Translations under genes and position numbers: made by a program | Origin: a virus | Lineage: Duplodnaviria > Heunggongvirae > Uroviricota > Caudoviricetes | Strand: one strand, 5' to 3' | DNA: 6,168 bases | IMG/VR virus record: IMGVR_UViG_2778261506_000004 | In this document: one piece after another, positions 310 to 6,168 of the stretch | Layout of the letters: the number at the start of each line of letters is the position of its first letter | How positions within the stretch are numbered: the stretch's first letter is position 1 | The notes under the pieces: model-generated | The model's database searches: none | Seen by the model: the letters and a program-made list of their open reading frames with translations, nothing else | Told to the model about the DNA's origin: nothing

Positions 310-516
310 ATGCACAAAACAGAACCCAAAATCGTCGCGCCCGGATACACAAATGAGGAAATTTACGAGTGGATGGCAAAGAAGCTGGCAGCTATAAACC
401 AGCTTCGTGAAGTGCTGTCTTATCGACAGGAAACAATAGACTCCTTAAAAAAACTGGATCAGGAAATCACGGTTTTATCACAGGATGTTACTTTAGATAT
501 TGTGCAGACAAATTAG
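310..516 (+). CDS. Small hypothetical phage protein, 68 aa, predicted helical/coiled-coil (MHKTEPKIVAPGYTNEEIYEWMAKKLAAINQLREV...)
   Basis: ATG at 310 is preceded by a strong Shine-Dalgarno GAGGAGG (297-303) at 6-nt spacing. The ORF track start at 295 is a TTG with no RBS. Stop TAG at 514-516. No family recognised. Confidence 0.55.
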   Translation: MHKTEPKIVAPGYTNEEIYEWMAKKLAAINQLREVLSYRQETIDSLKKLDQEITVLSQDVTLDIVQTN

Positions 517-922
517 GATCCCATTCATTTTCGTCAAAATCATCAAAGTGATGAATTTGTGATCTCCAGTCTCGATAATCTAAAAATTTCTGGGCGGTTA
601 CGCTTATTTTATCAAGTGTGAGTTCATCCTGAATTGAAAGAAGAAGTTCATCAAATTTCATCTCATTAATCTGTTTTGGCATCCAGTGATGCTTCATCAG
701 AATAAGGTGAACCAGAGCCTTTTTCCCATTCAACTGATTATAGGGAGTGCCGAATTTCTTCCGGTGCTCATGTAAGACAAGATCCAGAAGAGTAAGTAAT
801 GTTGCCCTTGATTCCACTTTGCTTATTTCGACTGATGACACTACCCCACTGATTTCAATGCCCCGATACTTTCCAACATTTTCACAGTGGGATTTGTACA
901 ACGTGTAGATATTACCGGACAT
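488..922 (-). CDS. Hypothetical protein, 144 aa, encoded antisense to the surrounding + strand operon; candidate lysogeny-expressed moron or exclusion gene
   Basis: ATG (complement of 920-922) is preceded on the minus strand by AAGGA at about 7-nt spacing; stop is the complement of 488-490. Its 3' end overlaps the 310..516 gene convergently by 29 bp. Near the C-terminus the string RDWRSQIHH gives an R-x6-H spacing that is loosely HEPN-like; this is weak and unverified. Confidence 0.55.
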   Translation of the reverse strand: MSGNIYTLYKSHCENVGKYRGIEISGVVSSVEISKVESRATLLTLLDLVLHEHRKKFGTPYNQLNGKKALVHLILMKHHWMPKQINEMKFDELLLSIQDELTLDKISVTAQKFLDYRDWRSQIHHFDDFDENEWDPNLSAQYLK

Positions 923-937
923 TTCTTTTCCTTTTGC

Positions 938-989
938 GTTGTTGGGGATAACCAGATTAACCGAATCCTTGTTGTTGGGGAATAACCAG
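938..989. repeat. Tandem imperfect direct repeat: GTTGTTGGGGATAACCAG (938-955) and GTTGTTGGGGAATAACCAG (971-989), about 33 bp centre to centre
   Basis: Read directly from the sequence; the two copies differ by one inserted A. They lie 16 to 70 bp upstream of the minus-strand gene start, i.e. in its promoter or leader region. On the minus strand each copy contains TTATCCCCA / TTATTCCCC, a partial resemblance to a DnaA-box TTATNCACA. Confidence 0.6.
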
Positions 990-1206
990 GTCCACCTCGC
1001 CTGATGTGGCTAAAAGCAGGCACATAACAGCTAAGTATTTTCAACCAGAGAGAATCCTTAGCGTTGTGGTGAATGCTGCTCAGCGCACGCGGGTTAAGGT
1101 TGAGGCTGACAGTCGACCTTCTGTGGATACCCACCCGCCTGGTGTGCAACCTTCGCCAGGCACCGGGAGGCACCCGGCACCACAACTTTATGCTGTGTGT
1201 AGTCTT

Positions 1207-1253
1207 GGCGGTACCAGCTTGTACCCTTGCTTCCGGCTGGTACCGTCCTTTTT
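1207..1253 (+). terminator. Candidate intrinsic terminator or attenuator hairpin: 10-bp perfect stem CGGTACCAGC (1209-1218) / GCTGGTACCG (1236-1245), 17-nt loop, followed by a T5 run (1249-1253)
   Basis: Perfect inverted repeat followed by TCCTTTTT on the + strand only; the minus strand has no T-run after the hairpin. It sits about 140 nt upstream of the 1391 start codon inside a GC-rich region with no ORF. The loop is longer than in a typical terminator. Confidence 0.4.
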
Positions 1254-1390
1254 ACAAAACAGAGAAGAGCATCACCGGACGACGGGCTCATAACTCAATC
1301 CATCCGGGCGGCTGCCACCGCAGGTGTTCTTCTCTGTTTTGTGGAGAAACTAATCGGCCTTGCAGGGTCGATATGATGAGGAGCAGCAAA

Positions 1391-1753
1391 ATGGCTAGCG
1401 AACGCAGTACTGATGTGCAGGCATTTATCGGGGAGCTGGACGGCGGCGTATTTGAAACCAAAATCGGCGCAGTTCTCAGTGAAGTCGCTTCCGGTGTGAT
1501 GAACACGAAAACCAAAGGTAAGGTCTCACTCAACCTGGAAATCGAACCATTTGATGAGAACCGAGTGAAAATCAAACACAAACTCTCATATGTTCGCCCG
1601 ACTAACCGCGGGAAAATTTCTGAAGAAGACACCACCGAAACGCCGATGTATGTCAATCGCGGTGGTCGCCTGACTATTCTGCAGGAAGACCAGGGACAAT
1701 TACTGACTCTTGCCGGTGAACCTGACGGAAAACTCCGCGCAGCAGGTCATTAA
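1391..1753 (+). CDS. Hypothetical phage early protein, 120 aa (YfdP-like by size and position in a CPS-53/KplE1-type cassette; identity from memory, unverified)
   Basis: ATG at 1391 is preceded by GAGGAG (1378-1383) at 7-nt spacing. The ORF track's longer version from 1073 translates to an Arg/Pro/Cys-rich, non-protein-like N-terminal extension across the GC-rich region and is rejected. Stop TAA at 1751-1753. Confidence 0.7.
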   Translation: MASERSTDVQAFIGELDGGVFETKIGAVLSEVASGVMNTKTKGKVSLNLEIEPFDENRVKIKHKLSYVRPTNRGKISEEDTTETPMYVNRGGRLTILQEDQGQLLTLAGEPDGKLRAAGH

Positions 1754-3609: not shown

Positions 3610-4717
3610 AAATAATGTTTCAGTCCCGAACTTGTATCCGCTTTATAGTAGAAAAGTAAATAAAGTCTATTGGCGATATAAACATCCTGTGACCGGGAAG
3701 TTTCATTCTTTAGGCACAAACGAAGCTGAAGCCATTGCTATTGCCACTGAGGCAAATTCACGCCTGGCTGAGCAAAGAACCCGGCAGATTATGGCTATCA
3801 GTGACAGGATCGCAACCAGCAAAGGAAAAGCAATCACAACGTCAACCTGGTTAGATCGCTATCAAGCAATCCAGGATGACAGACTGGAAAGTGGCGATAT
3901 AAAGCTAAACACCTATAAACAGAAAGCCAAACCAGTATCCTTGCTCAGGGAACGAGCAGGAATGAAATTAATTTCATCAGTTGATGTAAGGGATATAGCA
4001 CAATTACTTGACGAGTATATCACTGCCGGGCAACCGAGGATGGCGCAAGTAGTCCGCTCCGTTCTAATTGATGTATTCAAGGAGGCACAACACTATGGGG
4101 AAGTCCCTCCGGGCTATAATCCAGCACTGGCAACCAAACAACCCAGAAGAAAAATTACCCGACAACGGTTAAGTCTTGAAGAATGGCAAAAAATCTTTGA
4201 TATCGCAGATGCACGCCATCGTTATATGGGGAATGCCATGCTGTTAGCACTGGTTACCGGCCAACGGTTAGGTGATATCTCACGTATGAAATTTAGCGAT
4301 ATTTGGGATGATCATCTTCACGTCATCCAAGAAAAAACCGGGAGCAAAATCGCCATCCCGCTTTCCCTTCGCCTCAATGCAATTAACTGGAGTTTACGCG
4401 ATGTAGTAGCCCGCTGCCGTGACTATGCAGTCAGCCCATACCTTGTACATTTTTTTCGTACTACTTCACAGGCTGAACGTGGCGCGCAAGTAAAAGCCAA
4501 TACATTGACGATGAATTTCAGTAAAGCGAGGGATTTAGCAGGCATTGACTGGGGTGAAGGTTCGCCCGCCACATTCCATGAACAAAGATCTTTATCTGAG
4601 CGACTTTACGAAGCTCAGGGCGTCGACACCCAAAAACTTCTGGGACATAAATCGCCTAACCAGACAGCTAAATACCATGATGATCGTGGTAAGGAATGGG
4701 CAAAAATCAAGGTTTGA
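3590..4717 (+). CDS. int: Site-specific tyrosine recombinase, phage lambda Int family integrase, 375 aa
   Basis: N-terminal arm-binding region resembles lambda Int (...VPNLY...VTGKFHSLG...). The C-terminal catalytic domain has the lambda-like motifs VTGQRLGD (Arg), PATFHEQRSLSERLY (His-x-x-Arg), LLGHKS (His) and AKYHDDRGKEW (Tyr nucleophile). AAGGA RBS lies 9 nt upstream. Confidence 0.95.
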   Translation: MAARPRKNNVSVPNLYPLYSRKVNKVYWRYKHPVTGKFHSLGTNEAEAIAIATEANSRLAEQRTRQIMAISDRIATSKGKAITTSTWLDRYQAIQDDRLESGDIKLNTYKQKAKPVSLLRERAGMKLISSVDVRDIAQLLDEYITAGQPRMAQVVRSVLIDVFKEAQHYGEVPPGYNPALATKQPRRKITRQRLSLEEWQKIFDIADARHRYMGNAMLLALVTGQRLGDISRMKFSDIWDDHLHVIQEKTGSKIAIPLSLRLNAINWSLRDVVARCRDYAVSPYLVHFFRTTSQAERGAQVKANTLTMNFSKARDLAGIDWGEGSPATFHEQRSLSERLYEAQGVDTQKLLGHKSPNQTAKYHDDRGKEWAKIKV

Positions 4718-4832: not shown

Positions 4833-5729
4833 ATGCAGTTGTATGCCTTACGTGTGTTAATGAGACCGCGCGATCCAGACCTCTTTTCGAAAGGAGCTGT
4901 TCAGAAAGATATCTCTCATTTTGAAAATGCTATGGTTGTCGCTGCAAAAAATTTACACATGACGTCATCAACACCTTCCGTTCATAAGAAAACTAGTTAC
5001 ACCCTGAAATTGAGCATAAAACCTACTGATGGTGTTATGGCTGGAGTCATATCAAAGCTGCAAAAGATTAAAGGACATGATAAAGACTTTCGAGAGTACG
5101 ATGTAGACAACTATCCACCTATCGTATGGATTTGGGACAAAGTAGAGCAGGTGTTACTGGTTGAGAGGAAAACCGCTGTTTTCAAGGATGCGCAACAAGT
5201 TGCTAAAGCATTCGAAGATCTAGCCAATAACGACTATTTGGCTCAGTTAGGACTTAGAATATTTATAGAGCCTTGTCTTGAAATGGAAGATTTTTGGTCA
5301 GAATACCATAGGCTTCAATTTATCGACAAAGTCAGCTTTACGCTGATTACTCCGAATATCTTCGGAAGCAGTAAGCAAGCGTTAACCAATGATTTACGGA
5401 AGCTTGAAAAAGATACCAATGCAAATACTGTGACCACTATTTTTGAAAACAAAGATGGCAATTTGAAACTCAAAGGTTCTCATTGGGCTGAGACTCTTGT
5501 TGACTGGGTCAAAGATGGTGGCGGGTCATGGTTGATTAAAGGACGTAAGACACTCAAGTCAAAATCTACTACGGTATCCAGTAATCAGACAGCCAAAATC
5601 GTGCTGATCGAAGGTGAGATATCAGAAATTGAACTTGATGGCTACTCAGCAAATGATATTAAAGAGATCATAGCATTACATCAAAACAGGTATACGTTCA
5701 AAAATGCAAAATCTAACTGTCTGGATTAA
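4833..5729 (+). CDS. Hypothetical soluble protein, 298 aa, no recognisable family; first gene of a two-gene operon
   Basis: ATG at 4833 is preceded by AGGAG (4821-4825) at 7-nt spacing. Long ORF in a visibly AT-richer region than the upstream phage genes. No Walker A, HD, HEPN or other motif was recognised by eye. Confidence 0.8.
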   Translation: MQLYALRVLMRPRDPDLFSKGAVQKDISHFENAMVVAAKNLHMTSSTPSVHKKTSYTLKLSIKPTDGVMAGVISKLQKIKGHDKDFREYDVDNYPPIVWIWDKVEQVLLVERKTAVFKDAQQVAKAFEDLANNDYLAQLGLRIFIEPCLEMEDFWSEYHRLQFIDKVSFTLITPNIFGSSKQALTNDLRKLEKDTNANTVTTIFENKDGNLKLKGSHWAETLVDWVKDGGGSWLIKGRKTLKSKSTTVSSNQTAKIVLIEGEISEIELDGYSANDIKEIIALHQNRYTFKNAKSNCLD

Positions 5730-6168
5730 AGCTATAGCTACCTTCTTTTTGTGCTTAGCATTAGCATCGACTGATAAAACCATTTATACCTTACTTGAGC
5801 AGGCTTCTGCTGGAGTAATAGGTTCAATACTTGGAGGTATTGCCGCAGGTATCTCCGTTATCTTCGGAATTTTGGCTGTCATTAATAAGGGCGAGAAAAG
5901 CACAGACTTTACGGACTATTTAGATAGTTTAGAATTAGATTTGAAATTACTGGTCATGTGTCTGGCAGTAACAATCTTCCTTCCCTATTTACGTAATTAT
6001 GACATACCACTAGTAAATTATCCTCAGCACGAATTTATCCCTTCTAAAGGCAAGCTATTTACTGCTTTAGAACTTTTTGCTATCGTGCTATCTCTTAACC
6101 TCATTGCAGAAGTGATTAGCTGCATGATTTTAGTGGTTAAAAAAAGTTTCAAAATTGAATCAAAGTGA
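5704..6168 (+). CDS. Small integral membrane protein, 154 aa, about four predicted transmembrane helices including a Gly-zipper-like helix (GSILGGIAAGISVIFG)
   Basis: ATG 5704 overlaps the upstream gene by 26 nt in another frame, suggesting translational coupling; its own RBS is weak. Hydrophobic stretches at roughly aa 7-22, 36-60, 80-96 and 118-145. Stop TGA at 6166-6168 is the last codon of the window. Confidence 0.7.
   Translation: MQNLTVWIKAIATFFLCLALASTDKTIYTLLEQASAGVIGSILGGIAAGISVIFGILAVINKGEKSTDFTDYLDSLELDLKLLVMCLAVTIFLPYLRNYDIPLVNYPQHEFIPSKGKLFTALELFAIVLSLNLIAEVISCMILVVKKSFKIESK

Follow-up and report, generated by a model that had tools for sequence, protein, structure and literature searches.

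A putative STnc100-type small RNA with an RprA-like linker heading the early-left operon in an e14-like prophage of Escherichia coli

Small RNAs (sRNAs) of the STnc100/PasD family have been located in the late region of prophages, near Q, stx2 and sialate esterase genes, and the PasD sRNAs from prophages of enteropathogenic and enterohaemorrhagic Escherichia coli are Northern-validated and Hfq-dependent. The processed form of RprA consists of the last 47 nt of this sRNA and is active alone (PMC9262595). StxS is described in PMC7547250 as acting on rpoS. Here we analyze an interval at 923–1390 of a 6,168-nt stretch of viral DNA (IMG/VR record IMGVR_UViG_2778261506_000004; this whole stretch is referred to as the window). 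The stretch represents the early-left arm of a lambdoid E. coli prophage resembling e14 and SfV. The interval lies directly upstream of yfdP and is probably a non-coding, modular RNA locus heading the early-left operon. On balance, we favor the reading that it encodes a prophage sRNA which belongs to the STnc100 family, depends on Hfq and carries an RprA-type seed, and whose terminator also gates the early-left operon.

The window was compared with the Rfam models. At gathering thresholds, no match was returned in the window. With permissive filters, positions 1–206 of the STnc100 model (RF02076) aligned with 1033–1256 of the plus strand at 41.9 bits (E = 1.1e-7). The covariance-model search suggested in an earlier note on this DNA, which had been made from the letters alone, thus recovered a known RNA family over its full model, though under the gathering cut-off. 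The alignment agrees with the predicted fold, namely in the closing stem, several internal hairpins and the terminator. The phages phiES15 (40.6 bits) and ST64B (35.1 bits) also remain under the cut-off on this model, and canonical loci sharing the motif CACCGGGAGGCACCCGGCACCA score 62–138 bits (eight contigs put through Rfam, all matching). This 20-mer is present exactly at 1163–1182, on the 3′ side of the core, while GGUGAAU is found on the 5′ side, and the core shows the P1-closed multi-helix arrangement of STnc100. Exact copies of CCGGGAGGCACCCGGCACCA were found in over 120 viral contigs. About 18 contigs among them are closely related to the window, and the remainder share only about 22–27 nt with it by BLAST. 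A scan of genome contigs with the 14-mer GTTGTGGTGAATGC returned nearly exclusively chance matches in unrelated phyla. The evidence leans towards the center of the interval (about 1033–1253, plus strand) being a divergent prophage sRNA of the STnc100/PasD family. Its elements, including the linker and terminator that follow the core, are:

1063–1071/1178–1186, plus strand: P1, the closing stem of the core
1072–1074, plus strand: J1/2 of the core, AAU
1075–1079/1085–1090, plus strand: P2, with A1087 bulged and T1077 in place of the G of most copies
1096–1102 with 1147–1153, plus strand: core pseudoknot, AAGGUUG with CAACCUU
1096–1103/1113–1120, plus strand: local P3
1137–1142/1156–1161, plus strand: P4
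1163–1177, plus strand: P5, formed by CCGGG (1163–1167), the loop AGGCA (1168–1172) and CCCGG (1173–1177)
1187–1206, plus strand: single-stranded linker with the candidate seed UUUAUGCUGUGUGUAGUCUU
1207–1253, plus strand: intrinsic terminator, an inverted repeat with a 12-bp stem, GGCGGUACCAGC (1207–1218)/GCUGGUACCGUC (1236–1247), and U5 (1249–1253)

Searches with other conserved pieces yielded 40 unique e14-like cores belonging to at least six subtypes. Each core was parsed separately by sequence, and a MAFFT alignment (A1) was used for formal pair counts. These counts are lower bounds because P4 and the pseudoknot are not aligned correctly by MAFFT and because P1 is displaced by a single column in 13 sequences of the Klebsiella type. 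When parsed separately, the cores show compensatory changes in the pseudoknot and in the helices P1, P4 and P5, with 28 distinct helix combinations. P1 is found as GUUGUGGUG/CACCACAAC, GUUGUGGU/GCCACAAC and GAUGCGGUG/CACCGCAUC, and P5 as CCGGG/CCCGG, GGUGG/CCACC and CCUGG/CCAGG with the loop AGGCA in all; P4 is represented by many different stems. In A1, 75.3% of the cells are paired compared with 66.8% in shuffles, and covariation is 0.242 compared with 0.128 (0/500 shuffles as high in both cases). P2 and P5 are 99.5% paired, and three out of five P5 pairs have changed on both sides.

The pseudoknot joins the strand following P2 to the loop of P4 and occurs in six fully complementary versions among the e14-like cores. 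These are AAGGUUG/CAACCUU (window), GAGCCA/UGGCUU, AAGGCUGG/UCAGCCUU, AGACUGACAAA/UUUGUCAGUCU, CAGUUAA/UUAACUG and GGCCA/UGGCC. It is not part of the Rfam definition of STnc100, whose model cannot represent pseudoknots, and was added as a criterion in this analysis. The same pseudoknot, with at least 6 bp, was found in 63 of 73 canonical STnc100 cores, compared with about 7% of shuffled loops. Judged from these sequences, the predicted pseudoknot is family-wide in STnc100, and the 5′ domain of the window RNA (1063–1186) is modeled as a five-helix pseudoknotted fold. A type B core, present in mEp460 and in Stx2a/2c phages (where the BLAST match to the window begins only at 1205), shares the closing stem and the layout with an unrelated internal sequence.

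Several further observations were made in related loci. Many canonical STnc100 loci (L042, L073, L098 and others) possess strong sigma-70 promoters 5–8 nt before P1, and tandem copies about 484 nt apart are present in several contigs. The ST64B locus encodes the isrK sRNA (L003 21–97, minus strand; 64.3 bits). Some relatives (L129 ~2240–2400, L005 ~2750–2940 and L324 7457–7530) have a pair of T-arm-like hairpins 5′ of the core (GGTTCGATTCC; GTCCGTTCGATTCGGAC plus ACCGGCA). ARAGORN reported no tRNA at these inserts and, despite such hairpins in some relatives, neither the window-type locus nor any of six relatives examined yielded a tRNA or tmRNA.

The linker shows an identity with RprA. In a local alignment with the RprA sequences printed in PMC5606850 and PMC7311995, which covers RprA 62–80 only, residues 1191–1206 are identical to RprA nt 62–77 (16/16 bases). 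This 16-mer occurs once in the window and was absent from all 200 shuffles. According to our own count on the printed sequence, it amounts to about the whole single-stranded 5′ portion of processed RprA, and it is followed by the terminator as in that form. The linker is nearly invariant in relatives; its 15-mer TGCTGTGTGTAGTCT is present in at least 120 viral contigs (72 sequence clusters), and a literal text search for it returned two papers, in both as part of RprA. Our literature search found no description of a prophage RprA-like sRNA, nor of an RNA at ymfH, the annotated K-12 counterpart of the element (see below).

In the phage subtype of L259, 24 consecutive bases and the terminator stem are common with RprA. 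Here the Rfam RprA model aligns end to end (4362–4460, minus strand) at 41.2 bits (cut-off 70; E = 2.9e-4), and this alignment sets the second stem-loop of RprA on the STnc100-type P5 hairpin. In the window, the RprA model (RF00034) gave no match at E up to 10 in either 800–1500 or 1150–1270, and the window is therefore not a member of the RprA family. The 5′ stem-loops of RprA and its main rpoS-pairing seed (…CCCCUGAGUGAAACAACGAAUU) were not found in the window, the alignment being confined to RprA 62–80. A weak similarity between RprA 26–60 and the 5′ start of canonical STnc100, equalled by 16/500 shuffles, is a lead only. In L324, a genuine tRNA (Rfam 69.8 bits) is located directly 3′ of the RprA-like terminator.

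The linker is followed by a GC-rich hairpin and a U-tract, as required of an intrinsic terminator. A simple terminator scan missed this hairpin because the loop limit was set to 8 nt, compared with the 17-nt loop present here. The DicF model (RF00039) matches weakly at this site (19.4 bits, under the gathering threshold of 48). In a second alignment (A2), 9 out of 13 stem pairs of the terminator have changed on both sides. A long hairpin at 1249–1347 forms a second structured element. In A2 its lower stem is 93.5% paired, with five pairs changed on both sides, and its inner helix 98.5% paired; its apical motif GACGGGCUCAUAAC(C/U)CAAUCC is nearly invariant. Overall, 92.6% of the A2 cells are paired and 18 pairs have changed on both sides (0/500 shuffles as high). 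No shuffle among the 500 reached any of the observed values, except for ‘further pair types’ (150/500), and covariation is 0.186 compared with at most 0.071 in slid controls. Rfam returned only a chance-level MIR1094 overlap for 1249–1347 (19 bits with a cut-off of 80, E = 0.4) and nothing at gathering thresholds. The modules flanking the core and its terminator are:

939–990, plus strand: two copies of the direct repeat unit TTGTTGGGGA(A)TAACCAG, the second forming a hairpin loop
967–971/986–990, plus strand: hairpin CCUUG/CCAGG over the second repeat copy, 4/5 pairs in the window
992–1021, plus strand: H-type pseudoknot with S1 CCAC (992–995)/GUGG (1006–1009), S2 GCCUG (999–1003)/CAGGC (1017–1021) and the A-rich loop CUAAAAG (1010–1016)
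1022–1035/1057–1068, plus strand: hairpin ACAUAAC-A-GCUAAG/CUUAGC-GUUGUG, which includes GCTAAG/CTTAGC and competes with P1 for GUUGUG
1249–1347, plus strand: long hairpin with a three-way junction, lower stem 1254–1278/1318–1342
1353–1372, plus strand: small predicted hairpin AUCGGCCU-UGCA-GGGUCGAU directly 5′ of the ribosome-binding site (RBS) of yfdP

The upstream modules vary in a similar manner. Read by eye, the hairpin at 967–990 with its UGUNGGGGA-type loop recurs in relatives with the stems CUGG/CCAG, CUUGG/CCAAG, UUCUCG/CGAGAA and UCUGG/CCAGA, and relatives show GGCGG-UGGCA-GCCGCC or CGACAUUGCAGUGUCG at the site of the small hairpin. S2 of the pseudoknot at 992–1021 exists in four compensatory versions (GCCUG/CAGGC, GCCCGG/CCGGGC, GCCGGG/CCCGGC and CGCCC(C)G/CGGGCG), and S1 varies too (CCACG/CGUGG). 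This block is present whatever the type of repressor or the left-hand neighbor; in O157 Rac-like prophages and Klebsiella phages it is found with no core. Its covariation at the RNA level and its presence in front of any left neighbor or repressor suggest that transcription probably starts further upstream. One promoter candidate, CTGATG-17-CATAAC, was rejected, being weak and having a −10 not conserved in relatives. In some loci, seed and terminator directly follow the upstream pseudoknot block without a core. Since the order of modules varies among loci, the leader appears to be assembled from exchangeable RNA modules.

GUUGUG (1063–1068) can pair either with CAUAAC (1023–1028) or with CACAAC (1181–1186). 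The minimum-free-energy fold of 930–1256 uses the 1022–1068 hairpin in place of P1, whereas that of 1033–1256 uses P1. This shift of the predicted fold by upstream sequence hints at alternative pairing. Compared with shuffled sequence, the folding z-scores are −2.87 for 1033–1256 and −5.15 for 1240–1400.

The description given in the earlier note is borne out by these data. It had noted a GC-richer stretch, and the GC content in 200-nt windows is 0.535–0.565 at 1001–1400 compared with 0.355–0.44 at 401–1000 and 0.365 at 1701–1900. Its view that no credible open reading frame (ORF) is present agrees with the overlapping ORFs on both strands, which have Arg/Pro/Cys-rich products, none of them matching Pfam or NCBIfam. 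The short inverted repeats were located at GCTAAG 1030–1035/CTTAGC 1057–1062, GCCTGG 1137–1142/CCAGGC 1156–1161 and CCGGG 1163–1167/CCCGG 1173–1177, and the 10-bp perfect stem at 1209–1218/1236–1245, with T5 at 1249–1253. The note had overlooked a 25-nt inverted repeat (1254–1278/1318–1342) and a direct repeat (944–962/978–996). The comparison of homologues it called for, looking for compensatory base changes, revealed covariation in the core helices, the terminator and the downstream hairpin. Together with the full-length STnc100 alignment, the conserved position and the K-12 RIL-seq data described below, this upholds its proposal of a structured RNA rather than spacer or gene.

The K-12 homologue, 89% identical, is annotated as ymfH (L002 2576–2887), a 103-aa ORF with a GTG start. 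The frame is open in one out of 13 unique full-length homologues, the K-12 copy, while the other 12 have premature stops; homologue lengths are 314, 315 or 321 nt compared with 312 nt, and these differences are not multiples of three. The K-12 frame is open because one nucleotide has been lost from the AGGCA loop, which is invariant in the other copies; the K-12 copy also shows a G-to-A change and a broken P5. The K-12-type sequence is found at ≥99% identity in 283 records, all five among the matches listed being K-12-type laboratory strains, and YmfH has no Pfam or NCBIfam model. As the ORF is intact only in K-12, we consider ymfH an annotation artefact rather than a decayed gene. The earlier note had stated that an intact gene in related prophages would turn the interval into a decayed pseudogene; formally K-12 ymfH is such a gene, yet 12 of the 13 unique homologues are interrupted.

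Published data exist for the K-12 copy. In the re-analysis of K-12 RIL-seq by Bar et al. (2021; PMC8175672, Table S1), “ymfH (CDS)” is listed twice. The exponential-phase sheet gives 81 chimeric fragments with 3 partners, a SIC of 0.667 (k = 3) and an sRNA score of 0.113; the second data set gives 117 chimeric fragments with 4 partners, a SIC of 0.75 (k = 4) and an sRNA score of 0.094 (PMC8175672). SIC values of 0.667 and 0.75 mean that ymfH was second in every chimera. A U-tract is nearby and the sRNA scores adjoin those of dicF; the text of the paper does not discuss ymfH (PMC8175672). These data support the K-12 copy behaving as an Hfq-bound sRNA. The Hfq-CLASH supplements contain no mention of ymfH. 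In a retron study (bioRxiv 10.1101/2020.06.22.160242), cloned ymfH triggers the retron-Sen2 RcaT toxin, and a Reg-seq study groups intE-xisE-ymfH into one operon whose start site is conditional. The active agent in screens with cloned ymfH may be the RNA rather than a protein.

The gene context was taken from NZ_CP059947.1, which is 99.97% identical to the window from 249 onward. In the RefSeq annotation of this genome, ymfK, coding for a LexA-family, cI-like repressor, comes first, and yfdP is followed by the YfdQ/DUF2303 gene, yfdR, xisE and intE. The features are:

1–248: 3′ end of an IS5-like (ISKpn26-family) element, with its terminal inverted repeat at about 228–246, inserted between the pL/immunity region and the early-left genes
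310–516: gene for a 68-aa hypothetical protein, following ymfK in RefSeq
488–922, minus strand: ECs1072-family gene (RefSeq)
1066–1376: “frameshifted hypothetical protein” pseudogene, the sole PGAP call between 922 and 1391
1378–1383 and 1391, plus strand: RBS GAGGAG and ATG of yfdP, which opens yfdP-yfdQ-yfdR-xisE-intE (ORF list; RefSeq)
1391–1753, plus strand: yfdP (ORF list; RefSeq)

In the reference strain, pL (TTGACA-17-ATAATG) directly follows ymfK and is accompanied by TGTACC operators like those between ymfK and ymfT. In the window’s genome, the IS5-like insertion between the ymfK-side pL and the locus severs the operon from pL. The region is matched in 2781 out of 5426 complete E. coli genomes, and the element lies 3′ of a cI-like repressor and 5′ of the first early-left gene in e14, ST64B, phiES15, mEp460, an Stx2a phage and an SW070919 prophage. 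Two overlapping ORFs of 298 and 154 aa, the second apparently membrane-like, are located 3′ of intE (4833–5729 and 5704–6168) and have no match in Pfam or PADLOC; in the reference genome they are followed by an integrase pseudogene.

From the structures and published data above we infer the following mode of action. The RNA would end at the 1207–1253 terminator and bind Hfq by its U-tail, and the RprA-type stretch would base-pair in trans. By this route the prophage would either add to the host's RprA regulon or compete with it. Prior RNase E cleavage in the A/U-rich ACUUUAU just 5′ of this stretch is conceivable, as for RprA. The same terminator would limit read-through into yfdP-yfdQ-yfdR-xis-int, in the manner of an attenuator, and read-through transcripts would carry the 1249–1347 element in the 5′ untranslated region of yfdP.

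Several points weigh against an Hfq-dependent sRNA of this kind. The STnc100 score of 41.9 bits is under the curated cut-off of 47, and helix P2 contains a U-C mismatch due to T1077, which the window and three sampled copies share; about 20 copies carry a G there. A consensus scan detected no sigma-70-like promoter on the plus strand in 923–1062, and the IS5-like element between pL and the locus makes expression uncertain in the window’s genome. The sRNA score of K-12 ymfH (0.113, with 0.094 in the second data set) is hardly over the authors’ candidate threshold of 0.1 (PMC8175672). The type B relatives keep the architecture without the RprA-like stretch, and the pairing of 1189–1208 with the rpoS leader (−15.3 kcal/mol) falls on the upstream edge of the RprA site, a calculation which provides a lead only. 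Finally, Rac-like loci place the core after the terminator, directly before the RBS, which fits a role in cis better than the body of a trans-acting sRNA; the L260-type loci are identified as Rac-like prophages because RalA is present (L260 11327–11505, minus strand; 215 bits). A purely cis-acting leader, in which the upstream pseudoknot, the core and the second hairpin would govern whether the early-left transcript is elongated or terminated, by processive antitermination of the put kind or by 5′-end-dependent attenuation, with the short terminated RNA as a by-product, is nevertheless rather unlikely as the whole explanation; it partly overlaps the sRNA reading and is compatible with it. In its favor are a position at the head of the operon that is constant across immunity types, the strong terminator ahead of all early-left genes where no N-like gene is annotated, the alternative partners of GUUGUG with a predicted fold that switches with upstream sequence, the core between terminator and RBS in Rac-like loci, the upstream pseudoknot persisting without the core, and the motif GCGGGTTCAGG shared by stem II of HK022 putL and canonical P4. 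Against this, there is no overall similarity to HK022 put but only 11–15-nt matches in the wrong order; many canonical members are free-standing, with good sigma-70 promoters 5–8 nt before P1 and terminators of their own; the published PasD and STnc100 are abundant Hfq-dependent sRNAs; and being always second in RIL-seq chimeras, as K-12 ‘ymfH’ is, is sRNA behavior.

Conservation at the DNA level is improbable; the candidates would be operators or promoters, among them a leftward promoter of the ECs1072-family gene, or else a boundary at which phage modules recombine. The region is indeed mosaic, with breakpoints at about 938, 992, 1205 and 1367, and has direct repeats at 939–988; in K-12-type sequences the DNA of the 992–1021 block may also carry a minus-strand promoter, read from the sequence as TTTACC-16-TATACT and overlapping the pseudoknot. 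But double substitutions and G-U pairs keep the helices on the plus strand only, and the block stays with the rightward leader regardless of the left-hand neighbor, even where this is a plus-strand gene, as in phiES15. Because it is common to different repressor types, it is not an immunity operator. Least credible of all is the RefSeq pipeline’s interpretation of a protein-coding gene, YmfH (103 aa), frameshifted here. Such a gene would account for the intact GTG-initiated ORF of K-12 and its derivatives and for the PGAP call of a frameshifted hypothetical protein at 1066–1376. However, the frame is intact in a single homologue among 13, where it depends on the AGGCA-loop deletion, indels are not multiples of three, the product matches neither Pfam nor NCBIfam, ST64B (77% identity) has no annotated ORF there, and substitutions keep RNA pairing, not the reading frame.

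Four features make the Hfq-dependent sRNA proposed here of interest: a tail that is identical to part of RprA, a K-12 gene annotated in error, a pseudoknot found throughout the family and a leader built of modules. The locus offers a concrete link, open to experiment, between the RprA regulon of the host and an RNA of a very common prophage. A structured RNA takes the place of the K-12 y-gene ymfH and of “frameshifted hypothetical protein” calls that number in the thousands; it may also account for cloned “ymfH” acting as a retron-toxin trigger in an over-expression screen. The STnc100/PasD family gains a subfamily beneath the Rfam threshold and a pseudoknot supported by covariation. The modular RNA leader, composed of pseudoknot, core, seed plus terminator and three-way hairpin, would represent the early-left control region where no N gene is annotated. 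More tentatively, we consider it possible, though doubtful, that the prophage RNA represents a mobile relative, or mimic, of the core-genome regulator RprA, that RprA descends from such a leader and that the STnc100-type domain acts in cis. In this case the shared 16 nt would tie a prophage carried by about half of the complete E. coli genomes into the RprA/Hfq network (RpoS, biofilm, narP), or set it in competition with that network. As the Rfam RprA model sets stem-loop 2 on the phage P5 hairpin, RprA is possibly a truncated relative of the phage RNAs; it may have arisen from such a phage leader by losing most of the STnc100-type domain. The pseudoknotted domain may likewise serve as a cis element in antitermination or as a 5′-end-dependent switch.

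Among the known systems, HK022 put and the lambda nutL/N-leader are structured RNAs that start an early operon, as does the element in the window-type phages, in which no N gene is annotated; a plausible common trait is an elaborate fold containing a short triplex or pseudoknot. HK022 put is different in having two stems, about 70 nt in total and no immediate terminator, with no sequence or architectural homology. An identity with put was rejected, since the HK022 PL-nun interval gives short matches only, in the wrong order. In HK022 itself (L127 6257–6271 and 6241–6251, minus strand), stem II of putL shares GCGGGTTCAGG with canonical P4, and AATGCTGCTCA is shared with window 1072–1082, the order being swapped; these matches may be due to chance. 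StxS, the short PR′-tR′ transcript of Stx phages, is a prophage sRNA that arises by early termination ahead of a phage operon, as is proposed for the window RNA, but its sequence is unrelated and it belongs to the late operon under Q control. DicF of prophage Qin is likewise a small RNA in the early-left operon of a defective lambdoid prophage, 5′ of kil/dicB-type genes, with a seed-plus-terminator layout and UUGGCGGUAYCAG in the terminator; its seed sequence differs, and the window reaches 19.4 bits on its model with a cut-off of 48. Processed RprA shares the 16 nt UGCUGUGUGUAGUCUU directly before the terminator hairpin and U-tail, after ACAAC and an A/U-rich stretch, and its terminator stem is common to some phage relatives. 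Unlike RprA, the window RNA is prophage-encoded, away from the chromosomal rprA locus, and has a large 5′ domain; it lacks the 5′ stem-loops of RprA and, from the rpoS-pairing region, the part AACGAAUU. The closest relationship is to STnc100/PasD, with which the element shares P1, GGUGAAU, the bulged P2, P4, the invariant P5 CCGGG-AGGCA-CCCGG beside CACCA, the linker and intrinsic terminator after the core, location on prophages and an alignment over the full-length model. It differs in its score (41.9 compared with 47 bits), in the sequences of P2 and P3 and in the RprA-type linker, which canonical members do not have. Comparison by genomic context also separates them: canonical members belong to the late region, in the vicinity of Q, stx and sialate esterase, PasD with the Q antiterminator and LpxR within 10 kb, whereas here the order is repressor, element, yfdPQR, xis and int, and the element heads the early-left operon.

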